The notes under the pieces: generated by a model | The model's database searches: none | Told to the model about the DNA's origin: nothing | The model's input: only the letters and a program-made list of their open reading frames with translations | Program-made: the position numbers and the translations under genes | Shown here: piece by piece, positions 1 through 12,003 of the stretch | Layout of the letters: every line of letters starts with the position of its first letter | How positions within the stretch are numbered: the first letter of the stretch is position 1 | DNA from: a candidate division FCPU426 bacterium | Lineage (GTDB): Bacteria > Oederibacteriota > Muellerivitia > Muellerivitales > Muellerivitaceae | NCBI GenBank assembly: GCA_963796105.1 | Contig: CAWCKJ010000006.1 | Coordinates: forward strand, 192,001 to 256,000 | DNA: 64,000 nt | Direction: 5' to 3'

Positions 1-856
1 CCGCGTAGGCCCTTTGGGTTTCCTTTTCGAGGGCCTTCAATTCGCGCACGGTCGCCCCGCTGGCCCTGACGGTCTTTAATCCCGCCAGGCTTTCGGAGAT
101 CCTGCCGGAGATGGATTGCCATTGCTCGTAGTAGGAATCCAGGTTGACCCCAAGGCGCTTGGTGGAAGCCACAGCCACCCAGGCGTAAAAGGGAAGGGGG
201 GCCAGCGCCAGGGCCGCCAAGAGGGGGCTTTGGTAAAGCATGATGGCCAGGATGCCAACCAGGCGGACTGCTTCTGGGCCGACCCTTAAGGCCAGCATCG
301 TCACGACCGGCTCGACCTGTTCCACCTGATCGACTTGCTTGGTCAAGAACGAGGCCCTGTCCGTACTGCCACGGCTTAAAGGCAAGTGAAGGGCCTTTTT
401 GAAAGCGGCCAGGATGACCGCCCTTTCCATGCCGTGACCAGCCCGGCTGGTCATGATTTCCGCCCAGGCCGAGGTGAAGGACGCCAAAAGGGAAATCAAC
501 GAGAGGAGAACTACGACCACCGTCAGGGTGGTCATGGCCTGCTTGACGGTGCGGTGCGCCACTGTGTGGCGCGTGTGGGGTTTTTTCGCCTTCCAGGCCT
601 CCAGCAGGGTGGCCTCAACCTTCTCCAGGGAGCCCTCGTCCTTGCTGTTGCTGACAAACACCCCTGCGACGTCATTCACCGCTTCCCGGTAAAGCAAGGG
701 TTGCAGAAGGAGAAGGAGGCTGGAAAAGCCTGCCAGGACCAGGATGCCGATAAACAGGCCCCTTTGCCGTAAGGCCATTTTAAAGAGGCTTGCCACAGGA
801 CGGGCCGCGTCCAGGTCTGTTTCCAAAGCCGGACCCAATCCAAATTCAACCTTCAA
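1..856 (-). CDS. ABC exporter, transmembrane domain (partial; runs off the window edge)
   Basis: My translation gives an open minus frame from TTG at 856 with several hydrophobic helices and ...SGRISESLAGLKTVRASGA..., the typical ABC_membrane 'E.l.G...v+a' segment. Missing from the ORF track because no stop lies in the window. Confidence 0.8.
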   Translation of the reverse strand, partial: MKVEFGLGPALETDLDAARPVASLFKMALRQRGLFIGILVLAGFSSLLLLLQPLLYREAVNDVAGVFVSNSKDEGSLEKVEATLLEAWKAKKPHTRHTVAHRTVKQAMTTLTVVVVLLSLISLLASFTSAWAEIMTSRAGHGMERAVILAAFKKALHLPLSRGSTDRASFLTKQVDQVEQVEPVVTMLALRVGPEAVRLVGILAIMLYQSPLLAALALAPLPFYAWVAVASTKRLGVNLDSYYEQWQSISGRISESLAGLKTVRASGATVRELKALEKETQRAYA

Positions 857-914
857 GTTCGGCCTCTTTTTCCACGGAATATTGTGATCAAATCACACCA
901 GTCAAAATATTATT

Positions 915-1022
915 TAGCCACGGATGTGCCAATCTTCCTCAAAACTTATTAAGAGATTGGTACGATACCGACCTCTTTAATTACTTATAGGAAGGTCGGC
1001 ATGCATGGGATACATGGGATTT
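915..1022 (+). repeat. Twin-hairpin mini-element copy E1
   Basis: TAGCCACGGAT-GTGCCAATCT..AGATTGGTAC-G-ATACCGACCT..AGGTCGGCAT-GCATGGGA; same architecture at five other sites. Confidence 0.85.
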
Positions 1023-1034
1023 AAAGAAACTTCG

Positions 1035-1145
1035 GATCGTGACAAGAGCATGGCTCTTGCGCCCATAGGGTGTTATGTCCCTGCCAGCGGACCTCGGAAA
1101 AACGGATTTTCCCGGAGGCCGTTGGCTGAGCCATATAACACGATC
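1035..1145 (+). repeat. 111-bp multi-stem structured motif, copy B1
   Basis: GATCGTG..CACGATC closing stem, CAAGAGC/GCTCTTG hairpin, GCCC/GGGT hairpin, GGAAAA/TTTTCC apical stem; second copy at 8281-8391. Confidence 0.8.
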
Positions 1146-1213
1146 GATAAGCAATCCTCCATTTAAAACTTAAAATTAAAAATTTAAAATTCATCATGTA
1201 AAAAATGCCTTGC

Positions 1214-1322
1214 CATCCCCCTGCATGCCGAACCTCATTAAAGCCTTCAATGAAAGTTCGGTATAGTGCCGATTTCCTTAAATGCTTCAGGGTTGAATCA
1301 GCACATCCCCTGAATCCGTGGC
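1214..1322 (-). repeat. Twin-hairpin mini-element copy E2
   Basis: Reverse complement matches 8124-8227 with one mismatch. Confidence 0.9.
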
Positions 1323-1351
1323 AAAAAACTTGGTTTTGTAAGATTAACCTG

Positions 1352-1492
1352 TTAAGGAAGGGTGCTTTCCCGGCGGCGGGCCTTTTCCTTGAGTTTGCGG
1401 CGGTTGTCCCTTTTCACCCGCTCCTGGGGTTTAATGGCCCAGACCTTGCGGATCTTGACCGGCCCTGCCTTGATTTTGAGTTTTTTGTTCAT
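1352..1492 (-). CDS. Small, very basic hypothetical protein (46 aa)
   Basis: MNKKLKIKAGPVKIRKVWAIKPQERVKRDNRRKLKEKARRRESTLP; the only plausible ORF between E2 and E3; start uncertain. Confidence 0.45.
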   Translation of the reverse strand: MNKKLKIKAGPVKIRKVWAIKPQERVKRDNRRKLKEKARRRESTLP

Positions 1493-1610
1493 GACGGTAT
1501 CCCGAAACATTAGCCCTTCTGGCAGGCCCTTTACCAATTTGGAATATTAACCCAGAGTACCCCCTTAATCCAGGTTCCAAACACGTCTGAGGCAATTGTA
1601 AGCACGGCTC

Positions 1611-1716
1611 TAGCCACGGATGTGCCGATTCACCAAAAAGCCGATATGAAAATCGGTACGATACTAGCCTCTTTTAGATGTTTTATGGAAGGTTGGCATG
1701 CAGGGGATTCATGGGA
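1611..1716 (+). repeat. Twin-hairpin mini-element copy E3
   Basis: TAGCCACGGATGTGCCGATT..AATCGGTACGATACTAGCCT..AGGTTGGCATGCAGGGGATTCATGGGA. Confidence 0.85.
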
Positions 1717-1932
1717 TAAGATTACAAACACCTAGTAAAAGTTGAGTTTTAAGCCGGGGTCCTGCCCGCATCCTCGGAAAACCCGCCCACATTACTAGGG
1801 GCATGTATCGGGAAGGTTTTCCGTTGGCCGGTGCCGGTGTTTCCGTTGGTCGGTGCCGGGTTTCAGTTGGCTGGGGAGGGGAGTTGGCACAATCGCCCCG
1901 AAATGGCACCATCCGGGATCTTGGTTTCCGCC

Positions 1933-2660
1933 AACCCAGTATTTGGAAAACCCTCAACCCAGTATTGGAGGCCCCAACCCAGTACAACCCAGTATTTGGA
2001 AAACCCTCAACCCAGTATTGGAGGCCCCAACCCAGTACAACCCAGTATTTGGAAAACCCTCAACCCAGTATTGGAGGCCCCAACCCAGTACAACCCAGTA
2101 TTTGGAAAACCCGCAACCCAGTATTGGAGGCCCCAACCCAGTACAACCCAGTATTTGGAAAACCCTCAACCCAGTATTGGAGGCCCCAACCCAGTACAAC
2201 CCAGTATTTGGAAAACCCTCAACCCAGTATTGGAGGCCCCAACCCAGTACAAACCAGTATTCGGAAAACCCTCAACCCAGTATTGGAGGCCCCAACCCAG
2301 TACAAACCAGTATTCGGAAAACCCTCAACCCAGTATTGGAGGCCCCAACCCAGTACAACCCAGTATTTGGAAAACCCTCAACCCAGTATTGGAGGCCCTA
2401 ACCCAGTACAACCCAGTATTTGGAAAACCCTCAACCCAGTATTGGAGGCCCTAACCCAGTACAACCCAGTATTTGGAAAACCCTCAACCCAGTATTGGAG
2501 GCCCCAACCCAGTACAACCCAGTATTTGGAAAACCCTCAACCCAGTATTGGAGGCCCCAACCCAGTACAACCCAGTATGGGGGGCTCAACCCAGTATTCG
2601 GAAAACCGATAACCCAGTATGGGGGGCTCAACCCAGTATTCGGAAAACCGATAACCCAGT
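1933..2660. repeat. Tandem array: 12 x 53-bp units followed by 2 x 42-bp variant units
   Basis: Unit AACCCAGTATTTGGAAAACCCTC-AACCCAGTATTGGAGGCCCC-AACCCAGTAC (1933-2568), then AACCCAGTATGGGGGGCTC-AACCCAGTATTCGGAAAACCGAT twice; no unique spacers. Confidence 0.95.
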
Positions 2661-2745
2661 TCCGTATAGCTAGGCCGGAAGCCCTGTAGGCACGATTTGG
2701 GGGTCCTGTATTCATGAGGTCGGGAGCCACCGTCGGCAGGGAGGA

Positions 2746-2835
2746 TAACCCGCCCACATTGCCGGGAACATGTGTCGGCTGGGGAGGATAACCTGCCCAC
2801 ATCCCTACTGGCATGGTGGATAAACCGCCCACATT
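2746..2835 (+). repeat. Three spaced copies of an AACCCGCCCACAT-like motif
   Basis: ATAACCCGCCCACAT, ATAACCTGCCCACAT and ATAAACCGCCCACAT; a further copy AAACCCGCCCACAT near 1779 on the other side of the array. Confidence 0.7.
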
Positions 2836-2878
2836 TCCGGCGACACCCGGCGACAAGAAACAGGGGTCACAAGAAACA

Positions 2879-2930
2879 GGGGTCAGGCCACACGCTCCGC
2901 AGCGTGTGGCAGAGATCATTCATCACTTTA
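2879..2930 (-). repeat. RAYT end motif copy M1 (with a 25-bp hairpin insertion)
   Basis: GGGGTCAGGCCAC[ACGCTCCGCAGCGTGTGGCAGAGAT]CATTCATCACTTTA. Confidence 0.75.
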
Positions 2931-2937
2931 CTGTCCG

Positions 2938-3624
2938 CGTCACAACCGCGCGGGACATTTGTACCAGGGGCGTTATAAGGCGATTTTGGTCCATAAGGAT
3001 AGTTACTTAAAGGAATTATGCAGGTATGTGGTCTTGAATCCGGTCCGGGCCAAGATGGTCAAGCATCCGAAGGAATGGAAATGGAGCAGTTACCGGGCTA
3101 CGGCAGGTTATGAGACCGAGCCGGAATGGGTGGAAAATAAATGGCTTTTGGAACAGTTTGGAAAAGTGAAACATAAGGCGCAGGGTTTGTACCGGAAATT
3201 CGTGTTGGAAGGCTTGAGGAAGAAAGAGAGCCCATGGGAGCAAGTAACATCGCAGATCATATTGGGGGGGAAAAGTTTTGAGGAGCACATTAAAGGGAAG
3301 ATTAGGGGGAAGCATCACCATGAGGCGCACAGGGAACAACAGAAATTGGGCTTGCCGGATGCCGAGGAAACGCTGAAAAAGATCGGGAAAATGCATGGGA
3401 TTATGGTGAAAGATATGGTGGTTCCGACCCGGCAGAAAAACGAAGGGCGGGAAGCGGCGGTATGGGCCTTACGTCAGATATGCCGATTAAGTTTAGGGGA
3501 AGTGGCTAAGAAGATGGGGGTAAAATACTCCGCGGTAAGCCATGCGGTGGCAAGGATGAAGAAACGCATTCGGGAGGAAAAGGGTCTTGAGGAAAAGATT
3601 CGTAATGCCGTTTACAAGACCTGA
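2938..3624 (+). pseudogene. REP-associated tyrosine (Y1/HUH) transposase with C-terminal HTH, 5'-truncated (HUH motif missing)
   Basis: Frame reads RHNRAGHLYQGRYKA..ELCRYVVLNPVRAKMV..WKWSSY with a DnaA-C-like HTH tail; homology starts abruptly just after motif M1. Confidence 0.85.
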
Positions 3625-3654
3625 CCCTTATTTTCTATATTTTTTGGGCGAGTC

Positions 3655-3681
3655 TAAGGTGATGAATGTTGGCCTGACCCC
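3655..3681 (+). repeat. RAYT end motif copy M2
   Basis: TAAGGTGATGAATGTTGGCCTGACCCC. Confidence 0.85.
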
Positions 3682-4483
3682 TTTTGTTCTATTATGTCAC
3701 GCTTGGGTATTGATGGATAATCATTACCATTTGATGCTGGAAACCCCAAGCGCGAATTTATCAGCAGCCATGAAACATTTAAACGCCCAATACACACAAA
3801 AATTCAATAAAAAGCATTATCGGAACGGGCATTTGTTCCAGGGGCGGTATAAGGCCATTATTGTGGAGAAAGACAGTTATTTAAAGGAATTAAGCCGGTA
3901 TGTGGTATTGAATCCGGTAAGGGCCCGGATGGTAAAACACCCCAAAGACTGGAAGTGGAGTAGTTATCGGGCGACAGCGGGATTTGATAGGGCGGAAAAA
4001 TGGCTGGAAGTGGACTGGTTATTAGGGCAGTTTGGAAAGGAAAGAAAAAAGGCGCAAAAATCATACAGGACTTTTGTGGAAGAGGGGATGGGGAAGAAAG
4101 AAAAGCCTTGGGATGATTTGTATTCGCGTATATACCTGGGTGGTAAGGAGTTTTTGGACAAGGTTCACGAAGTAGGGCAACGTCACAAACATTTGGATGT
4201 ACCGAAATATCAGAAACACGTGGTAAAGCAAGATCCGAAAGAAGTGCTGGAGAAAGTAGGAAGAATGTATGGTAAAAAAGCGGAGGAAATATTGAGGGCA
4301 GGCAAAAGGGAGTCGGAAGCCCGGGATATGGCGATATATTTATTGAAGAGAAAATCAGGAATGAGTTCCAAGGCGATAGGAATGAAGATGGGGGTGGGGG
4401 AAAGCGCGGTGGGAAACCGATTGATGAAGATCAAAAAAAGGTTAGCGGAAGACGAGAAGTTTGCGCAAAAGCTGATAAAGTGA
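3662..4483 (+). pseudogene. Second RAYT/Y1 transposase with C-terminal HTH; N-terminal strand missing, HUH and catalytic Tyr retained
   Basis: CHAWVLMDNHYHLMLETP (HUH), GHLFQGRYKA, RYVVLNPVRA, WKWSSY. It lacks the usual N-terminal 'YHV..RG' segment; an in-frame ATG is supplied by motif M2. Confidence 0.85.
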
Positions 4484-4502
4484 TGAATGATGGCCTGACC
4501 CC
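4476..4502 (+). repeat. RAYT end motif copy M3 (contains the transposase stop codon)
   Basis: TAAAGTGATGAATGATGGCCTGACCCC. Confidence 0.85.
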
Positions 4503-4838
4503 TTTGTTTTATTTGTAGCCGCCCGAATCCAGTATCACGGCCATCGGGATGTGGTGAGGTATTCAATCCATGATGATAGGACAGCGGGCCTATTGGGTTT
4601 CCTCAAATACCTTGATCGAAAACGATTGGAAAGACCCAGGGCGGCCTAGAAATGGCTTGGTGCAAAAAATTCTTTGCACATAAGTTCACTTCTGATGAAA
4701 ATGGCCACTGTCGGGTCCCGATTCAGGCCGATCTGGCCACGGAATCGGTAAACTTGGTGCAAAATTCAGGTATTAGTTTTATGAAAACTGCGAATCGCCA
4801 ACCAGAATTCAGAATCATGACGTTGAAAGGGGATTTCT

Positions 4839-5876
4839 ATGAATCTCTTTAAATTACAGAAAGTAATTTTTGCTTTTGTGGTTTCAATGGTTCTTATGTC
4901 GCCAATTATTGGTTTGACAGCAGAGAAAGCATCCGCCGCCAAAAAGATTACCCCGAAAGTAGACTTTCCAAAGAACCCATCTGAAGGGGTGCTGATCGCT
5001 ACCATACCCTGGAAAGCGGTAACCATTATGAGAGGGGGGAAATCTTCTAACGATAAATTGTCATTAAAAAATTGGTCTTTCGACGCAATTCCTTTAGTTG
5101 TGTATCTCATTAAAAATAATAACGGTTCAGTAATAAACCTTGGCTCAAGAAGTGGTCCGGGTTTTTTAAGAACAGATCAAAAAGGCAATTTGTTTATATT
5201 TTATGGTGGCTCGATTTTTATTTACGACATTAAAAATCAAACCGTTAAGTACAACGGAGATTTATTGAAAAAAGAAGGCGGGTCTCCCGTTGACTTGGAA
5301 ATGTATACGAATGGGGATATTAGTTTTTTGGTAAGGGACAATAAAAGCTTCGGCGACGATAGCGTGCATTATGTAAGAAAAAACCTAAAAGGCGACTTGA
5401 TCAACGAAAAAAGAGTTATTCCAAAGATAATGGCTGAACACCAACTTTCAAAATGGACCCTAAGTCGGGGCGATATTTATTATGCGAAAAGTGGAAATAC
5501 TGAGAAAATTGATTCTATTTCGAATTTAACTGAAGAAGAAAAAGATAAAATTGGAAATAAAATTATAGAATCCACGGAAACTGATTTGCGGAATATGAGA
5601 AAAACGATTGAGAAAGATATATTTCACCTTTTCATCGCACCACTCCATTTTGTGCAAGAAATGAAGGGTAGTGAATATTATTGGACTAATGGGGTATTTG
5701 ATGGTCGGGCCGAAGTTGATGTAGTTTATATTAGAAATAAAAAAGGAAATCATAAAATTTATATTTTGCCGCCTGAAAGCAAATTCTGGCGGATGGTTGA
5801 TGAAAACGGCAATTTTTATTCCAAGGTTGATACGCCAAATGCTCTTGAGGTTTACAAGTACGTTGTTAATTGGTGA
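4839..5876 (+). CDS. AT-rich secreted hypothetical protein (345 aa)
   Basis: Long ORF with AAAGGGG RBS and an N-terminal signal-like segment; composition visibly more AT-rich than the core genes. Confidence 0.8.
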   Translation: MNLFKLQKVIFAFVVSMVLMSPIIGLTAEKASAAKKITPKVDFPKNPSEGVLIATIPWKAVTIMRGGKSSNDKLSLKNWSFDAIPLVVYLIKNNNGSVINLGSRSGPGFLRTDQKGNLFIFYGGSIFIYDIKNQTVKYNGDLLKKEGGSPVDLEMYTNGDISFLVRDNKSFGDDSVHYVRKNLKGDLINEKRVIPKIMAEHQLSKWTLSRGDIYYAKSGNTEKIDSISNLTEEEKDKIGNKIIESTETDLRNMRKTIEKDIFHLFIAPLHFVQEMKGSEYYWTNGVFDGRAEVDVVYIRNKKGNHKIYILPPESKFWRMVDENGNFYSKVDTPNALEVYKYVVNW

Positions 5877-6004
5877 GGAAAAATTTGAAGGAAAAATATC
5901 TTCTTATTTTCTGGTTATTTCTGCCTGGAATTATTTACGGGGATATAACCCTTAATCCTGTTGATTCCGAAACATGGGTTTCGACAGTTGGTGTAGTTCC
6001 TGCC
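5873..6004 (+). pseudogene. 5' fragment of a secreted-protein gene cut off at end motif M4
   Basis: GTGA overlap with the upstream stop; signal-like LLIFWLFLPGIIYG; the frame then runs into the repeat. Confidence 0.5.
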
Positions 6005-6019
6005 GAACAAGAGAAATCA

Positions 6020-6046
6020 GGGGTCAGGCCACCATTCATCACTTTA
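6020..6046 (-). repeat. RAYT end motif copy M4 (inverted relative to M3)
   Basis: GGGGTCAGGCCACCATTCATCACTTTA. Confidence 0.85.
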
Positions 6047-6048
6047 GA

Positions 6049-6081
6049 CCTGAAATCTTCCGCTCGAATCCCGCGCCCCCA
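6049..6081 (+). repeat. 33-bp direct repeat, left of the TA module
   Basis: CCTGAAATCTTCCGCTCGAATCCCGCGCCCCCA; 29/33 identical to 6935-6967. Confidence 0.75.
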
Positions 6082-6098
6082 TACATCTTTTTTTAAGT

Positions 6099-6138
6099 GT
6101 CAAGTGCACTTGACGAAGACGGGACGATAGCCTATCAT
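6099..6138 (+). promoter_or_regulatory. sigma-70 promoter of the TA operon with a palindromic operator
   Basis: TTGACG-17 nt-TATCAT; perfect 16-bp palindrome GTCAAGTGCACTTGAC overlaps the -35. Confidence 0.65.
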
Positions 6139-6156
6139 TTTATTGGAGGGGCCGGC

Positions 6157-6519
6157 ATGGAAGCTTTTCCTAGAACTATTGTTTACTATTAAACCGCCGA
6201 CGGGAAAAGACCATTCATCGAGTGGATTGAGGAACAAGAAGATGCACTGAGACACCGGATCAACACACGATTTTTACACGTTGAAAATGGGAATTTCGGG
6301 GTCCACCGCAAGGAAGGTAATGGGGTTTTTGCACTGATATTTGAATTTGGACCGGGTTATAGGATTTATTACGCGTTAACTGAGGAACAAAAGGTTGTTT
6401 TGCTATTCACGGGGGGCACGAAGAAAAGGCGGGAAAGTGATATTGCGAAGGCCCACGAGTATTGGGCGGATTTAAAGGCGAGAAAAGCCATGGAAGCGAA
6501 GGGGAAAAAGAAGGATTGA
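6157..6519 (+). pseudogene. RelE/ParE-superfamily addiction-module killer protein with a nonsense codon
   Basis: MEAFPRTIVYY*TADGKRPFIEW..GNFG..FGPGYRIYY..VVLLFTGGTKKRRESDIAKAHEYW; TAA at 6190-6192; GGAGG RBS. Confidence 0.85.
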
Positions 6520-6544
6520 TCATCTGATAAATGGAGGTTTCGTT

Positions 6545-6871
6545 ATGGGTAAAACATCGGGAAGCTACAAGGAATATTTGCTTAAAAAACTGAAAGATCC
6601 GAAAGAAAGGGCCGGATATTTAAACGCCGCTTTGGAGGATGGCGATCCCGGAATTCTCCTGGCCTGCCTCAATGATTGCGCTAAAGCAATGGGAGGAAAA
6701 ACTTGGCTTGCCCGCGAAGCCCATTTGTCCCGCCAAGCCATTACCGCGATTGTTTCGAAGGATGGAAACCCCATGTACCGGAACCTAACGCGTGTATTGG
6801 CTCCAATGGGTTTGCGCTTCAAAATTGTGACGGGTGTTGGCAATCGAACGAAACAATTAACCCACGCTTAA
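6545..6871 (+). CDS. Addiction-module antidote protein (HTH antitoxin)
   Basis: YLNAALEDGDP..LAREAHLSRQ..DGNP..VLAPMGL pattern; directly downstream of the toxin; GGAGG RBS. Confidence 0.88.
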   Translation: MGKTSGSYKEYLLKKLKDPKERAGYLNAALEDGDPGILLACLNDCAKAMGGKTWLAREAHLSRQAITAIVSKDGNPMYRNLTRVLAPMGLRFKIVTGVGNRTKQLTHA

Positions 6872-6934
6872 AGTTCTTCGGGGAAATAATTGTCCCGCTT
6901 ATTCCAGTTGTTTAACAACGGAATCACTTAAGGC

Positions 6935-6967
6935 CCTGAAATCCCCCGCTTGAATCCCGCGTCCCCA
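6935..6967 (+). repeat. 33-bp direct repeat, right of the TA module
   Basis: CCTGAAATCCCCCGCTTGAATCCCGCGTCCCCA. Confidence 0.75.
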
Positions 6968-7020
6968 AGTTGTCCATGAGACGCCGCTTTCTTGTTTGCG
7001 TCCGCCGAATATCCTTGTTC

Positions 7021-7665
7021 CTAAAAAGGTTTTCCGCAGTTGGGGCAAACCAGGCGGGCGGCGAACCAGTGGCCGTCGGAGCGGGCGTAATCAGGGAAAA
7101 ATTCCGCTTCCAGGACGACCAGGCATTGGGCGCACTTGAGGCCGGCTTCCATCCCTAGATCCTGCTGGAGCTGGGGCTCGTTGCCCTGGCCGGTCTTGAT
7201 ATGGAGCCGGTAGGAATTTTTCACGGCTTTTTTCTGGCGGTCGTGCAGGAGATCCCGGATCTTGCTCAGGATCTGCCTGGGCGTATAAAACCCCTTGACG
7301 GTATAGTCGTTGGCGCCCATTTGAAGGGCTTTTTGGACATCCCGGGGCTCCCCAAGGACCGAGAAAATAATGACGGGAATATCCTTGGTCTGCCCGCTCC
7401 GGCGGATTTTCTCGAGGACCTGGAATCCGTCCAGCACCGGAAGCCCCAAGTCCAAAAGAACCAGGTCCGGCTTATGGGCCAGGATCATATCCCAGCCTTC
7501 CTCGCCGTTGGTGCTCTCAATCACCGCGTAACCATCCGCCTCCAGGACATCCTTGTAAACCCTGCGAAAGCCGCGCTGGTCCTCCATGATCAGTATGGTT
7601 CCTTTTTTCCCCTTCTCGGCCAAAGGTTTAACCTCGTTTGGGGATTGAGTAGTTTCATTTTGCAT
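7021..7665 (-). CDS. Response regulator: receiver domain plus C-terminal CxxC..CxxC zinc ribbon
   Basis: ILIMED, PDLVLLDLGLPVLDG, GANDYTVK; CAQC..CPNC. Confidence 0.9.
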   Translation of the reverse strand: MQNETTQSPNEVKPLAEKGKKGTILIMEDQRGFRRVYKDVLEADGYAVIESTNGEEGWDMILAHKPDLVLLDLGLPVLDGFQVLEKIRRSGQTKDIPVIIFSVLGEPRDVQKALQMGANDYTVKGFYTPRQILSKIRDLLHDRQKKAVKNSYRLHIKTGQGNEPQLQQDLGMEAGLKCAQCLVVLEAEFFPDYARSDGHWFAARLVCPNCGKPF

Positions 7666-8046
7666 GATGGTTCCTCCTGGAATGATGATTGTGGCTGGGA
7701 TCTCTTGATGTAAATGGGTTGCCGGGAAACAGCAAGCTTATTCCAAAAAATTCATGGGGTGCTAAAGAAATAAAGCGGGGAAAAGCTTGCTTGGTATTGA
7801 CGGCGTCCTGGCAGGATGAAGGCAATCACGCGCCGAGATAAGAAAATTATCCCTCGGGTCCTGGGGAATTCCCAATTTATTCGACGTTGTCATGACGATA
7901 GTGGAGCAGGGGGCATTTGCACATTTTCGGAATTGAATGACAAGTTTCATGGCTTTCCAAATAACAACAAAATCTAGCTAATTAAGATAAATAAAATTAG
8001 ATGTTTTTAATTCTAAAAGGCGTTAAGCAAGACAAGTCTTTGCCAC

Positions 8047-8123
8047 GTGCCAGCCTGCCATAAGGCAATAGAAGAAGGCTGGTACAGTACCGATCTCAAT
8101 ATATCTTTATGGATGATCGGCAC
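8047..8123 (+). repeat. Twin-hairpin mini-element copy E4
   Basis: GTGCCAGCCT..AGGCTGGTAC-A-GTACCGATC..GATCGGCAC interrupting GCCAC|GGATTCAGGGGA. Confidence 0.8.
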
Positions 8124-8227
8124 GGATTCAGGGGATGTGCTGATTCAACCCTGAAGCATTTGAGGAAATCGGCACTATACCGAACTTTCATTGAAGGCTT
8201 TAATGAGGTTCGGCATGCAGGGGGATG
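8124..8227 (+). repeat. Twin-hairpin mini-element copy E5
   Basis: Near-identical inverted copy of E2. Confidence 0.9.
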
Positions 8228-8280
8228 AATAAAAATGAACAAAATGAAAAATGTACAATGAATAATTCAAAAATGTCTCA

Positions 8281-8391
8281 GATCATGACAAGAGCACGGC
8301 TCTTGCGCCCGATGGGCGTTATGGTCAAGCCTACAGACCGTGGAAAAATTAATTTTTCCATCGGCTGTCAGCTTAACCATAGAACATGATC
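8281..8391 (+). repeat. 111-bp multi-stem structured motif, copy B2
   Basis: GATCATG..CATGATC, CAAGAGC/GCTCTTG, GCCC/GGGC, TGGAAAAA/TTTTTCCA. Confidence 0.8.
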
Positions 8392-8400
8392 AAAATGCGT

Positions 8401-8512
8401 TTTAAATCCCATGAATTCCATGCATGCCAGCCTTCCATTAGGATGATATTGGGGCTGGTATCGTACCAATCTCCGTAAAGGTTTTTGGAAGATTGGCACA
8501 TCCGTGGCTAAA
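8401..8512 (-). repeat. Twin-hairpin mini-element copy E6
   Basis: Reverse complement begins TTTAGCCACGGATGTGCCAATCTTCC and ends CATGGGATTTAAA, as E1 does. Confidence 0.85.
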
Positions 8513-8536
8513 TTCTTTGGGTAGGGGTGGGTTAAT

Positions 8537-9130
8537 TTAATAGGCTTTGTTGCACTTGCCGCAAAGGAAGTGCGCCGTGAACCAATGGCCCTCATTGTGG
8601 ACATAGTCCGGAAACAGCTCCAATACCAGTTCACCCTGGCACTGGGGACATTTGTTCTTGCTGGTAAACCCCAATTCCGACCAAAGAAGGGGAGCGTCCT
8701 CCGTGCCATCCATCACCTTCACCTTGAAAGAAGCGCCCCCTTTTGCGGGGCCGGCTTTCGTCATCAAATCCTTGATCTTGCTGAGGATTTGACGGGGAGT
8801 ATAAAAACCCTTCACGGTGTAATCGTTGGCTCCTAAATCCATCCCTTTTTGGATGTCCTTTTGTTCCCCCAGGACCGAGAAAATGATGACGGGCACGGCT
8901 TTAGTATCAGCGTCGGCGCGAATCCTCTTGAGGACCTCGAAGCCGTCCAGCACCGGGAGCCCCAAGTCCAGCAATACCATTTGGGGTTTCCGGGATTTTG
9001 TCATGGCCCATCCGGTCTCGCCGTCGCCGGCCTCCAAAACCTCATAGCCCTCGTTCTCCAACAGGTCCCGGTAGATGCGCCTGAAACCCTGCTGGTCCTC
9101 GACAATCAGAATGGTACCCTTGCCCCTCAT
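8537..9130 (-). CDS. Response regulator: receiver plus zinc ribbon (paralog of 7021-7665)
   Basis: VLLDLGLPVLDG, GANDYTVKGFYTPRQIL; CPQC..CGKC; overlaps the kinase stop (ATGA). Confidence 0.9.
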   Translation of the reverse strand: MRGKGTILIVEDQQGFRRIYRDLLENEGYEVLEAGDGETGWAMTKSRKPQMVLLDLGLPVLDGFEVLKRIRADADTKAVPVIIFSVLGEQKDIQKGMDLGANDYTVKGFYTPRQILSKIKDLMTKAGPAKGGASFKVKVMDGTEDAPLLWSELGFTSKNKCPQCQGELVLELFPDYVHNEGHWFTAHFLCGKCNKAY

Positions 9131-12003
9131 GACGGCTCCTTTCCAACGATTGGAATTTTAACCCGGAAAGTGCTCCCTTTGCCAGGCTTCGATTCGACCG
9201 AAATATCCCCGTTTTGCAGGTTCATGAACTTCTTGGCGATGAACATGCCCAAACCCGCCCCGGACCTGGAAGCTTCGTTGCCCATTACCCGGTCCCGCGT
9301 GAAAATCTTTTCCATGACCTGTGGGGTCATGCCGATCCCGGTATCCTTCACTTCCAGGAAGGCGTAATTATCCTCGGTCTTGGACCGGATGGTGATGGAA
9401 CCCCGGTCGGTGCACTTGATGGCGTTGTTGATGACATTCCTCATGGTTTCCACGGTCTTGTCCCGGTCAGCCATGACGGCCAGGCCCTCCGGAAGATCAT
9501 CCAGGATCAAGTCTAACCCCTTTCGCTGGATTTGGGACTCGTAATCCCGGATGGAAGCGTCGACGATTTGCCGGAGGGGAACCACCTGAACGTCCACGGT
9601 CAAAACCCCCCTTTCGATCTTGGACATGCTCAGGAGATCGGAGATCAAACGGTAGTTTTCCACCCCGATGTCCTTCATATCGGTCAAGTACTCGCGCTGT
9701 TTCGGGTTCAAGCCGCCTGTCAGGCCTTCCAGCATGTTCTCGATGTACCCGTTGATCTCCGCCACGGGCGTCTTGAGCTGGTGGGAAACCACCGAGATCA
9801 GGTCCCTTTTCATCTCGTCGATTTGCTTGCGCGCGGTGATGTCCCTGAGAATTCCCGTGAAGAACAACCCCTGGGGCGTTTTCCAGGAGAAATAGGAAAT
9901 CTCCACGGGGATTTCCTGGCCGTCCTTGCGCAACCCGACCCACTCCAGGGTCTGGTTCGGCAGGGTGGCCCTGCCGGTGGCCAGGTAATTTTGGACCAGG
10001 TCCAGGTTCTCCCGGACGGTTTTTTTGGACATCAAGGAAAAGATGGTCCTGCCGGAGAGCTCGTCGCTGGTGTAGCCGAAGATGCGGCTGACGGCGGGAT
10101 TGGTGAATATGATATGGCCGCTGCCGTTGGTGGAGACAATGCCCTCATTGGCCGACTCGGCCAGGGTCCGGAAGCGCTCCTCGCTGGTCCTGAGGGAAAT
10201 TTCGGCCTCCTTTTGCTCGGTGATGTTCTCGACGACCGCCAGCCGGAACATCGGCTGGCCGTTCAGGTCGAGGATCACGGAGGCGGTCACCATGCACCAT
10301 ATCGGCTGGCCGTCGCTGCCCACGTAGCGTTTCTCGATCTGGTAGCGCGGAAGGGTCTTGTCGAAAATCTTTTGCGAGAGGGCGGATTCGGCCTTGGCGT
10401 CCTCGGGGTAGGTGAATTCCAGGAACGATTTCCCGACCAGGTCGTCCTTGGAATAGCCCAGCATGCCGCAAAAGGCCCGGTTGACGTTGGCGAAGACGTT
10501 GTTGGGGAATGTCAGGGTCAGCCCGATGGGCCCCTCCTCGAAAAGGTTCCGGAAAAATTCCTCCCTTTCCCGGAGGGATTCCATGACGCCCTTTTGGCGG
10601 GTGACGTCGATGAAGGAGGTCAAGGCGAACTTCACCATCCCATGCTCATCCAGGATGGGGGCGCCCCAGGCCTGGAGGGGGATGGTTTTACCGTGGCGCC
10701 GGATTTCCATGTCATCCACGAAGGATTTTTCCCCCGCGATGGCCCTGCTGATGGGGTGTTTCTGGCCGGGGTATGGCTGGTCGCTGGACTCCAGGTATAA
10801 ATTACGGAACTCGGGGGATTGCTCGCCGGGATCATGGCTTTTAATGATGTCCGAGCCGAAAATTTCCTGGAGGACGTGGTTGGCGAAATAGAGCGCCCCG
10901 AAACGGTCCCGCACCAGGACCCCCACGGGAATCTCATCCAGGAACTGGAAGAGCCTGCGCTCGTTGTTCAGGAGGGTCTTGACGAAGAATTTCCGGTCGG
11001 TGATATCGCGGAGAATGGCCGTGTAGAAAGTGCCCTCCGGGGCTTCCCACCTGGAGAGGGACGCCTCCAAGGGGAATTCAGAGGTATCCTTGCGGCGGCC
11101 GTAAATTTCCATGGCCCCGGATTCGGCCGCGGAGGAGACGAATTTCTCGAAGGAAAAGTCCCCGGGATTTTCGGAGGGGCCCTGCGAGATTAAATCGGCG
11201 AGGGGTTTCCCGGCCAGCTCTTGGCTGGAATAACCGAATAGGGTCTCAGCGGAGGGATTTACCCCGTGGATTTGACCCTTGCCGTTCATCGTGATGAAAG
11301 CGTCGTTGGCGGTATCCGTGAATAACTTGAATTTTGTCTCGCTCGCCTTGAGGCGGTTCGCGGTGTTCAGGTTGACGCTGATTTGCCGCTTGATGAAAAG
11401 GTAGGTGGCGAAGCAAATCAAGAGTCCCAGGATGACGGTGAAAACCGTGTAGCCGATGTTTTTCTGGGCGTTTTTTTCCGCCGCGGACCTGGATGTTTCC
11501 TCGAGCCAGGCCTGGATTCCCGCCATGCTCCCCATCAATCTTTTCAACTCGCGGGTTTCTTTTTGCCCGTCCTTTTTTCCAATGTCCGAAACCGCGAGAT
11601 CGAACCGGCCAGCCCGGCACATCGCGAGCCCCTTTTGAATACTTTCCAGTTTTTGCTGGATGAGGAGCTGCAGGCTGTCCGTTTTCCGCTGGAGATCCGA
11701 TTTCCCGGAGGTGACGCGGGACAGTTTTTTAAGGTCCTTTTGAAGCCTCGACATGGCGTCGGAGCAGGAGCCGGCGTAACCCTCGCGCTGGGTCAGCAGG
11801 TAATCGCTGTAATGGGTCTGGGTTTCGAGAAAATCCGAGTAGGTTTTTTGGAGGGTTTGCACGAGGGAACTGGTGTCATCCGACCAGTCCGCGGCGCTTT
11901 GAAGCCAGTCGAAATTGAAATAAGACAACCCGACCACGATGAGAAGGAATAAAAGGATCAGGCTGAAAATCAGGTCGGGTTTTTCGCCGATTTTAAATTT
12001 CAT
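9127..12003 (-). CDS. Membrane sensor histidine kinase (CHASE3-like periplasmic domain, 4 PAS, HisKA, HATPase)
   Basis: Two TM segments; repeated PAS/PAC ending RDIT; VSHQLKTP H-box; NNAIK, DTGIG and GAGLG boxes. Confidence 0.93.
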   Translation of the reverse strand: MKFKIGEKPDLIFSLILLFLLIVVGLSYFNFDWLQSAADWSDDTSSLVQTLQKTYSDFLETQTHYSDYLLTQREGYAGSCSDAMSRLQKDLKKLSRVTSGKSDLQRKTDSLQLLIQQKLESIQKGLAMCRAGRFDLAVSDIGKKDGQKETRELKRLMGSMAGIQAWLEETSRSAAEKNAQKNIGYTVFTVILGLLICFATYLFIKRQISVNLNTANRLKASETKFKLFTDTANDAFITMNGKGQIHGVNPSAETLFGYSSQELAGKPLADLISQGPSENPGDFSFEKFVSSAAESGAMEIYGRRKDTSEFPLEASLSRWEAPEGTFYTAILRDITDRKFFVKTLLNNERRLFQFLDEIPVGVLVRDRFGALYFANHVLQEIFGSDIIKSHDPGEQSPEFRNLYLESSDQPYPGQKHPISRAIAGEKSFVDDMEIRRHGKTIPLQAWGAPILDEHGMVKFALTSFIDVTRQKGVMESLREREEFFRNLFEEGPIGLTLTFPNNVFANVNRAFCGMLGYSKDDLVGKSFLEFTYPEDAKAESALSQKIFDKTLPRYQIEKRYVGSDGQPIWCMVTASVILDLNGQPMFRLAVVENITEQKEAEISLRTSEERFRTLAESANEGIVSTNGSGHIIFTNPAVSRIFGYTSDELSGRTIFSLMSKKTVRENLDLVQNYLATGRATLPNQTLEWVGLRKDGQEIPVEISYFSWKTPQGLFFTGILRDITARKQIDEMKRDLISVVSHQLKTPVAEINGYIENMLEGLTGGLNPKQREYLTDMKDIGVENYRLISDLLSMSKIERGVLTVDVQVVPLRQIVDASIRDYESQIQRKGLDLILDDLPEGLAVMADRDKTVETMRNVINNAIKCTDRGSITIRSKTEDNYAFLEVKDTGIGMTPQVMEKIFTRDRVMGNEASRSGAGLGMFIAKKFMNLQNGDISVESKPGKGSTFRVKIPIVGKEPS

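Follow-up and report, generated by a model that had tools for sequence, protein, structure and literature searches.

What are the six short twin-hairpin sequences that lie between positions 926 and 8499 of the 64,000-nucleotide window analysed here (positions 192,001 to 256,000 of contig CAWCKJ010000006.1, from a candidate division FCPU426 bacterium), and by what means did they spread? A first-pass annotation, made from the letters of the window, took them for copies of a non-autonomous element resembling repetitive extragenic palindromic (REP) units or their inverted doublets, the REPINs (REP doublets forming hairpins), with an insertion polymorphism inside the window, and proposed that a neighbouring family of REP-associated tyrosine transposases (RAYTs) might mobilise it. 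Repeats of the REP type have been described mainly in Proteobacteria, and RAYT transposases are held responsible for their spread. In our analysis the first part of that interpretation stands, namely a dispersed non-autonomous REP/REPIN-like element with insertion polymorphism, while the mobilisation by RAYTs is not supported. The explanation we favour, with a probability of roughly 55%, is that the repeated units, called cores below, are a REP heterodimer of 75-80 bp and about 190 copies, a non-autonomous mobile element handled as single-stranded DNA (ssDNA) at a pyrimidine|G junction. A REP-type doublet family without an associated RAYT offers a test case for the movement of REPs without a dedicated transposase. 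In the following, coordinates without a contig prefix are window positions, and the source genome is called G000, with contigs C2, C3, C4 and so on.

Structure of the twin-hairpin cores

All six cores were recovered at the positions first given for them, by sequence reading, repeat scan and pattern. They are 76-80 bp long (n = 6) and share the frame GTGCY-stem-loop-stem-GGYAC-N-RTACY-stem-loop-stem-GGCAY that had been proposed. E1 (926-1002, + strand) has the stems AATCT/AGATT in hairpin 1 and GACCT/AGGTC in hairpin 2; it scores 82.5 bits with the covariance model and folds as ssDNA with z -3.97, and its insertion point is GGAT|GCATGGGAT, within the left of two host modules. E2 (1225-1304, - strand) is of the GATTC/GAAC subtype and scores 64.9 bits; its outer flank at 1305-1324 is the intact, 'empty' site GCCAC|GGATTCAGGGGAT. 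E3 (1622-1699, + strand) has a degenerate second hairpin, 77.0 bits and a weak ssDNA fold (z -0.47), and its host is a solitary half host end (1611-1621 and 1700-1717). E4 (8047-8123) has symmetric ends, GTGCC..GGCAC with the centre GGTAC-N-GTACC; the model prefers the - strand, with 80.8 bits, and the sequence GCCAC|GGAT split by this core is the 'filled' site. E5 (8137-8216, + strand) is 99% identical to E2 in inverse orientation according to the repeat scan, and E6 (8424-8499, - strand), of the AATCT/AGCC subtype, stands at the other end of the right host module.

Are the stems held together by covariation, as the first-pass annotation had claimed? The question was addressed with an alignment of 40 sequences, made of 5 window copies, 14 copies from other public contigs of metagenome-assembled genomes (MAGs) and 21 copies from other G000 contigs. 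Each core has two conserved stems of 9 bp, and standard pairs fill 92.8% of the 720 pair cells of this specified 18-pair structure, with double-sided changes in 11 of the 18 pairs. None of 500 shuffled controls equalled the real alignment on any of five measures, and slid controls were paired in 15-41% of cells. RNAalifold also recovers both hairpins from the 40 sequences, with compensatory changes in 10 of its 15 pairs. The covarying stems are thus upheld. When the window cores were folded as ssDNA, two hairpins appeared in five of the six, with z from -3.0 to -4.9. The exception is the degenerate copy E3, whose minimum fold differs from the twin hairpins (z -0.5) and which alone pairs end to end.

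How are the two hairpins related to each other? By a hand count on the alignment consensus, about 27 of the 38 positions of hairpin 1 are the same in the reverse-complemented hairpin 2. Both halves fit RTGCC-GAYC-TTCCATAAA...GAG-RTC-GGTAY, and the spacer between them is 1 base. By its sequence the core is therefore an inverted dimer of two homologous REP-type hairpins. The termini of the units are RTGC and GTAY (RTAC on the other strand), and the tags GTAG or CGTC of the REP superfamilies are not carried by the units in the 40-sequence alignment. Counted from the foot, the third pair of hairpin 1 is G.T in 72 of 94 distinct cores and that of hairpin 2 is A.C in 85, the latter being G.T when read on the other strand; the remaining eight stem positions are 96-97% Watson-Crick. 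One irregularity is thus kept per half, so that each strand shows one wobble hairpin and one mismatched hairpin. Outside this fixed third pair, G.T (22) and A.C (16) mismatches are about equally common, which argues against selection on one transcribed strand.

Could the cores nevertheless be a structured RNA, such as a small RNA gene, a terminator or an mRNA-stabilising element, selected at the RNA level? The strong covariation and the G.U permitted at the third pair of hairpin 1 would agree with this, but the balance of G.T and A.C does not, nor does the near two-fold symmetry by which a good hairpin and a mismatched one occur on each strand. The hairpins are not followed by a T-run. The cores lie in the same direction as co-directional flanking genes in 27 cases and in the opposite direction in 39, that is, without bias. 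Over the whole 64-kb window no Rfam family reached its gathering score, and a search to E 10 on 800-1800 gave noise with E above 2. We consider an RNA-level explanation highly improbable.

Copy number, placement and lineage distribution

The label 'six-copy' given to the element at first describes the window and not the family. The genome-wide count and the covariance model that had been proposed as checks were carried out: nhmmer gave 325 matches in G000, which collapse to 189 loci (142 full length, 34 partial), and the covariance model, R1, gave at least 150 matches. A strict pattern finds 71 sites with 55 distinct sequences. Cores also stand head to tail in arrays of 3-8 units with 0-2 nt between units, for example at C2:112810-113344, C2:120581-121188, C2:158388-158987 and C3:732528-732755. 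The first-pass annotation had named two outcomes that would speak against it, a match to an already described family and a confinement of the copies to this locus; what was found is that no described family in Rfam matches and that the copies spread far beyond the locus. Literature searches on REP, RAYT, REPIN and small nested repeats did not turn up the family; the supplementary lists of PMC3733652 were not covered by them.

How widely is the family distributed among bacteria? A pattern scan of 185,579 species genomes gave at least 16 loci; among the matches listed, 15 are true copies, lying in MAGs with assorted submitter labels, and 1 is a chance match. Model R1 has matches in 22 of the 24 genomes from the GTDB family of G000 and in none of 16 genomes from other families, where match counts in relatives may include both strands. 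In a phylum-wide search of 99 genomes with a threshold of E 1e-6 or better, 27 of 30 genomes in the family were positive versus 0 of 68 in 22 other families. The twin-hairpin family is limited to one bacterial family and is a marker of that lineage.

Within the genome, 100 of 114 array-collapsed loci are intergenic according to a crude call of open reading frames (ORFs) of at least 100 aa, by which 85% of the genome is coding. The spacers occupied are tandem in 66 cases, divergent in 21 and convergent in 13, matching the background of 1249, 420 and 302. This intergenic placement, with no preference for a spacer type or, as given above, for an orientation, is the pattern of selfish DNA.

Insertion junctions and turnover of positions

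Is there direct evidence for insertion? The pair of a filled and an empty site noted in the window is confirmed: 1196-1352 on the reverse strand and 8018-8240 align with a single clean gap of 77 nt, the length of the core, where the border is ambiguous by the 4 nt CACG and the flanking 107 nt are 99% identical. Genome-wide, 32 sites have the flank GCCAC|GGATTCAGGGGAT uninterrupted, and at 7 (under the strict pattern) to 10 sites a core of the symmetric-ended subtype divides it. Of the site GCCACRGAT|GCAKGGGAT, 30-33 filled and 28 intact examples were counted (strict form). When an empty site is required to be gapless over at least 28 nt at 90% identity or more, paralogous empty sites exist for 60 of 97 unique non-array junctions.

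The junctions obey a simple rule. Of 111 non-array copies, 97 have T and 14 have C directly before the core, never A or G, and in 109 this base is identical to the last base of the core. Of the dinucleotide match first noticed in the window (AT..AT or AC..AC), the last base therefore holds genome-wide and the remainder does not. The base after the core is G in 104 of 109 non-array copies, and two related cores that start with A have A directly after them. The first base of hairpin 2, the last base of the core and the base before the core covary in all 96 parsed copies, as A/T/T in 85 and G/C/C in 11. Among the matches listed for other genera, T precedes the core in 15 of 15 and G follows it in 14 of 15. 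The targets belong to several repeat families and share only the junction YT|G(K)G, relative to which the orientation of insertion is fixed.

Could the same flanks be left by a classical MITE (a miniature transposable element with inverted repeats) of a DDE transposon? The element would then be TGCC...GGCA, with short inverted ends and a 2-bp target duplication (TG, CG, rarely TA). The identity of the preceding base with the last base (109/111) and of the following base with the first (104/109) fits such a duplication, as do the two A-starting cores followed by A, and transposases of the IS3, IS256/Mutator, IS1595 and IS4-like kinds are present in the genome. However, the terminal inverted repeat is conserved over only about 5 nt, and the specific orientation relative to the non-palindromic TG, with no A or G at the preceding position, is not what a 2-bp duplication by a symmetric DDE complex would produce. 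Furthermore, the first and last bases covary with their partners inside the hairpins and so belong to the element. The identity between flank and terminus extends over 1-4 nt. The intervals bounded by partial copies (34 partials examined) yielded no autonomous DDE partner, although the ends of insertion sequences (IS) were not searched exhaustively. Two of these intervals are gene-sized; one encodes Thr/Pro-rich surface lipoproteins, and the other, between two complete diverged cores, holds an IS4-like gene with BRO and AAA genes. A DDE-type MITE seems to us quite improbable.

Then do the cores move at all? An alternative is that the core is itself immobile and has been spread by hitch-hiking, segmental duplication and gene conversion, while its hairpins are kept for use by the host. 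For bacterial interspersed mosaic elements a host use has been proposed, for example as a protein-binding or supercoiling site. In line with this alternative, core subtype correlates with host context; the 2.6 kb at 6338-8895, which hold E4-E6, are duplicated at C7:97211-99763 with 97.9% identity over 2,558 bp, so that copy number is partly segmental; and the family-wide persistence, with foot and loop words conserved across genera, would suit a host function. On the other hand, a single host position (..CCACRGAT|) bears cores of at least eight stem combinations, and the same combinations recur in other, unrelated contexts, which needs repeated independent insertion or shuffling. Moreover, 39 of the 142 full copies lie outside all recurrent contexts, and the borders of the cores are base-exact in many contexts. 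The alternative is also hard to reconcile with the lack of preference for spacer type or gene orientation and with positions that are not kept between two species of the same genus. We therefore hold an immobile core to be improbable.

The evidence on positions comes from an 18-kb region, G000:C4:894-912 kb, which has seven cores, while the syntenic pieces of the same-genus genome G001 have none. The genes of the region are 81-93% identical between the two, and the overall match number of G001 is similar to that of G000. The core-bearing spacers of G000 are short or different in G001; three spacers that were compared differ wholesale, so that presence and absence are seen and base-exact borders are not. 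This answers the comparison of orthologous loci that the first-pass annotation had called for: core positions turn over between two species of one genus. At the window locus, the flanking response-regulator genes find no DNA match in G001, the matches of G006 are non-colinear and G016 matches only window positions 3-869; no core is present at the compared loci of G001, G006 and G016.

These results are also of practical use. With the covariance model and the junction rule, annotators can mask about 190 loci per genome and can recognise the nested repeats, which could otherwise pass for regulatory RNAs. Contig breaks in the MAGs of this group also find an explanation in the arrays and the nesting.

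Neighbouring Y1 genes and the search for a mobiliser

Which enzyme might move the cores? The most obvious candidates are Y1 (RAYT-like) transposases, nearby and elsewhere in the genome, which would move the cores in trans as REPINs. What had been called the neighbouring RAYT family is a pair of truncated gene copies on the + strand, at 2872-3636 and 3692-4508, which have their own terminal repeats and whose paralogues match Pfam Y1_Tnp together with Bac_DnaA_C; these are copies of the TIRYT type, separate from the twin-hairpin element. G000 has 16 Y1_Tnp matches, consisting of two identical IS200 copies and 14 Y1+DnaA_C genes of about 315 aa in five subfamilies. Seven copies of the main group are 97-100% identical over a unit of about 1040 bp between GGGGTCAGGCCATCATTCATCACTTT and its complement. 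GGGGWSAS is found on both sides in four of six subfamily-representative genes (three subfamilies, including b and c), about 45 bp upstream and overlapping the stop codon, and subfamilies d and e have variant forms of the terminal repeat, read by eye. In the parts of PMC3733652 that we draw on, TIRYTs are tyrosine transposase genes with long GGGGWSAS terminal repeats, distinct from RAYTs flanked by REPs. Since the Y1+DnaA_C genes bear their own GGGTCAGG-type terminal repeats, they are TIRYTs of that class and not a REPtron.

Do these genes keep company with the cores? Only 3 of the 16 Y1 matches have a core within 1 kb, all in repeat-dense islands: C2:159178, 191 bp from an 8-unit array; C2:98780, at 680-934 bp; and C7:96798, at 486 bp. 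Their surroundings are a 70-kb island with about one core per 1.5 kb. For the other 13, the 1 kb on each side is free of cores; for 8 of these the same is true of 5 kb, and one Y1-bearing contig has no core at all. Across 24 genomes of the family, PF01797 is present in 17; cores occur in 15 of these 17, being missing in 2, and in all 7 genomes without PF01797. The core carriers without it include G004 (99% complete, 5 contigs), G019 (99%) and G021 (98%). Conversely, in the other families of the phylum, where cores are absent, Y1 genes of this kind are frequent. For RAYT mobilisation it can be said that 16 Y1_Tnp matches are available in the genome, three of them near a core, that MAGs often miss multi-copy genes, which makes Y1 absences in fragmented genomes weak evidence, and that the foot tag RTAC is one letter from GTAG. 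As described in the parts of PMC8266576 used here, a change from GTAG to GTAC redirected a Marinomonas RAYT to other dinucleotides. Weighing these points, we find it unlikely that RAYT-like enzymes move the cores; the mobilisation by neighbouring RAYTs is not supported by the distances, the GGGGWSAS repeats or the Y1-negative genomes.

Other candidates fared no better. An IS110-family gene at C13:24777 was rejected as the mobiliser, being about 20 kb from the sole core on its contig, and a 383-aa ORF beside an array was set aside as well, as it looks like an antisense artefact. Cas12f1-like_TNB (PF07282) had no match above the cut-off. A Pfam search on 40 ORFs of the repeat-rich C2 island found IS3, IS256, IS1595, TIRYT, toxin-antitoxin and polysaccharide genes and nothing specific to the cores.

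Comparison with known REP-type systems

Where does the family stand among known repeats? The comparisons below refer to the portions of the cited papers that describe these systems. Di Nocera et al. 2013 (PMC3733652) reported REP dimers with units 1-2 bp apart, including heterodimers. The cores resemble these in having two inverse palindromic units 1-2 bp apart, with different stems, that fold separately, and resemble their REPs in high copy number, intergenic location and grouping in clusters and tandem groups. They differ in their tags, which are RTAC (inner) and RTGC (outer) instead of GTAG or CGTC, in their long units of 38 nt with an A+T-rich loop of 15-18 nt, and in spanning a whole bacterial family of an uncultured phylum without a flanking tyrosine transposase. 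The same source describes CGTC-tagged REPs that lack a transposase of their own and REPs that lie inside target palindromes, with Thermomicrobium roseum GTAG-23, Halothiobacillus neapolitanus CGTC-1 and Anabaena variabilis GTAG-15 as cases of these kinds. Here too there is no dedicated transposase, the dimers lie regularly within other palindromic repeats, and free targets exist in some genomes. The targets of the cores, unlike those of nested REPs, come from a number of repeat families that are unrelated to each other: the 9-mer arrays that end MITE-like modules, GAGTCYCT/GTGGTG repeats, and the loops of small GC hairpins. The question of movement without a dedicated transposase thus stands for CGTC REPs as well. 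As for the 'TIRtrons' of that paper, the genes at 2872-4508 and their 13 paralogues are alike in having terminal inverted repeats that start with GGGGWSAS; these repeats are unrelated to the twin hairpin, and the TIRYTs are neighbours, not the element.

Compared with REPINs (Bertels and Rainey 2011, PMC3116915), the inverted REP doublet is likewise the replicative unit, doublets outnumber singlets (here 142 full against 34 partial copies), and the pattern is lineage-restricted and vertical-looking. Unlike REPINs, the cores fold as two hairpins (5/6) and not as one long hairpin, and there is neither a repeat-flanked single-copy RAYT nor a co-occurrence of Y1 genes with cores. The E. coli TnpA-REP has been described to need the stem irregularity, a bulge, to cut at an identical dinucleotide on the 5' and the 3' side of the REP and to use the tag as a guide, and the IS608 and ISDra2 transposases to read irregular stem bases (PMC8266576). 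Like the REPtrons of E. coli, Stenotrophomonas and Marinomonas (Corneloup et al. 2021, PMC8266576), the cores have imperfect hairpins in which an irregularity of the stem is conserved, and a short sequence that recurs at both borders, CT there and Y in the cores. Their 5' tag could also act as a guide, the R at the foot of hairpin 2 being placed like the guide tetranucleotide. The tag and the putative cut dinucleotide differ, however, and no cognate TnpA-REP was found. As the GTAG/CGTC tag, the single long hairpin and the RAYT association all fail, the family falls outside these named families: the twin hairpin works like a REP doublet yet belongs to none of them, and is a new variant of REP dimers. 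It constitutes a well-defined doublet family and lineage marker (27/30 versus 0/68), with turnover between sister species, a base-exact insertion rule and no associated RAYT.

How would such an element move? According to the explanation favoured at the outset, that of a REP heterodimer handled as ssDNA, the folded single-stranded core would be the substrate for cutting and for re-insertion at a pyrimidine|G junction. The conserved third-pair mismatch may let a protein distinguish the strands, as is the case for E. coli REP and IS608. At its 5' foot, hairpin 2 has an R that could pair with the last base of the element or with the base just 5' of the element, and a single pyrimidine would thereby be common to both cut sites, much as CT flanks RAYT substrates on each side; in the copies, the base that pairs with this R is both the last base and the base before the element. 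A Y|G junction would arise anew at either border with every insertion, and tandem arrays would then grow from successive hits on the same site. A bolder proposal, which we put forward as possible though doubtful, is a RAYT-independent REP doublet that combines family-wide persistence, one-orientation Y|G insertion directed by a guide-like base and Russian-doll nesting, and that is moved either by an enzyme class new to REPs or by a TIR-type Y1 enzyme acting on a second, unrelated substrate.

Several observations weigh against the favoured explanation. No candidate enzyme emerged: Y1/HUH genes neither flank the cores nor co-occur with them, their terminal repeats are unrelated to the twin hairpin, and the 38 genes beside 19 loci in two near-closed low-copy relatives have ordinary housekeeping roles and include neither a Y1 gene nor a family that recurs. 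Miniature elements derived from IS200/IS605 are known as palindrome-associated transposable elements (PATEs); such an origin was considered and rejected, since both resident IS200 copies have different end hairpins, CCACGGGCTTGCCCGTGG. Core orientation shows no bias relative to GC skew (38/21 against 38/17, with a noisy skew), so the lagging-strand signature of single-strand transposons is not supported. The G/C/C class comes from one host context in 10 of its 11 copies and thus represents few independent events. Core subtype and host context are partly linked, and with the segmental duplication this means that part of the spread may be hitch-hiking. Finally, public reads gave no allelic excision or insertion, where the Logan contigs are too short (106-258 bp, 4 runs). 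Seven public DNA runs contain at most 28% of the sampled words of 6900-9300, no RNA run was listed as containing them, and one 256-bp Logan contig covers 7930-8185 in the filled state; loose contig ends at 8121 and 8030 were rejected as alleles, coming from paralogous copies.

Host modules and other landing sites

What are the sites in which the cores land? The degenerate 9-mer background described at first exists, and it forms the terminal inverted repeats of another family of repeats. The left host module (893-1350, no strand assigned) has inverted 9-mer ends (TAGCCACGGAT, GCATGGGAT ACATGGGAT ... CCATCCCCCTGC, ATCCCCTGAATCCGTGGCAA) around a unit X and carries E1 and E2. The right module (8028-8513, no strand assigned) is inverted relative to the left one and carries E4, E5, a second copy X' (8281-8391) and E6. 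In general one inverted end consists of GCCACRGAT, GCATGGGAT and ACATGGGAT and the opposite end of ATCCCCTGC, ATCCCCTGA and ATCCGTGGC, and the outer sequence of this MITE-like module is conserved from CACACCTGTCCAAAATAGAC... to ...TTTATCTTTGTTCC. Dozens of copies are found, with or without X and with or without twin-hairpin cores. The short form, of about 100 bp, lacks X (for example C12:310001-310097), the long form contains it, and G000 has about 35 X-bearing modules plus short ones. Within the segmental duplicate of 6338-8895 lie the entire right module, a response-regulator gene and a small pair of genes.

X itself (1035-1145, + strand) is a structured unit of 111 nt with four helices: a closing stem GATCRTG/CAYGATC, two short hairpins and a long imperfect hairpin capped by GGAAAAATTAATTTTTCC. 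In an RNAalifold consensus of 28 distinct sequences from the approximately 35 copies, compensatory changes are found in helices 1 and 2. X has no Rfam match, and by BLASTN it is absent from 40 of 40 relatives, the same-genus genome included. It lies on the same strand in the two inverted modules of the window and must be flipped relative to the module ends; elsewhere, too, it occurs in both orientations relative to the module, and one copy, at C10:127362-127834, has the long hairpin inverted.

In other genera, analogous modules with ends made of CACCAAGGC-type 9-mers host the cores. A second common landing site in G000 is the short-repeat family CTGAGTCTCTGAGTCCCT ... GTGGTGAAAT, the context of 24 cores, whose repeats contain the small hairpins GGTTTC-GAA-GAAACC or GGTGC-GAA-GCACC (examples at C4:976339, C9:12485 and C2:161141). 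Numerous targets are loops or feet of other small hairpins, or borders within short tandem repeats. In hybrid units, hairpin 1 of a core is followed after ...ATAC by a different sequence, AGGCCGCATGAGGCTRCCAGCCGAG...; they are found at C2:103369-103508, C2:120497-120546, C2:154220-154269, C2:161022-161071, C2:161360-161409, C2:164618-164667 and C6:269453-269502. At one such site hairpin 2 resumes 50 nt later, and the hybrid units look like the insertion of another mini-element at the core centre. Small CAGATTTAC..TAAATCTG hairpins also adjoin core arrays.

Some further repeats accompany the TIRYT genes. A small perfect hairpin at about 2890-2915, CCACACGCT-CCGC-AGCGTGTGG, breaks up the left terminal repeat (2876-2930), and the same kind of insert is present in the right terminal repeat of the copy at C12:332364. 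Directly upstream of a truncated TIRYT copy, 1826-2708 is a tandem array of a 53-bp unit rich in AACCCAGTA, with 12 registers at 66-100%. Related arrays are found at C3:193292-193543 (upstream of a TIRYT gene), C4:378970-379335 and C3:594576-594862, and the TIRYT at C7:99775 is preceded by an array of the CTACCGGCATGG type. Lastly, a 264-bp repeat occupies 4512-4775; eight contigs carry 21 more copies of it, with identities of 96.5-99.2%, and it probably represents a young MITE or the end of an active IS.

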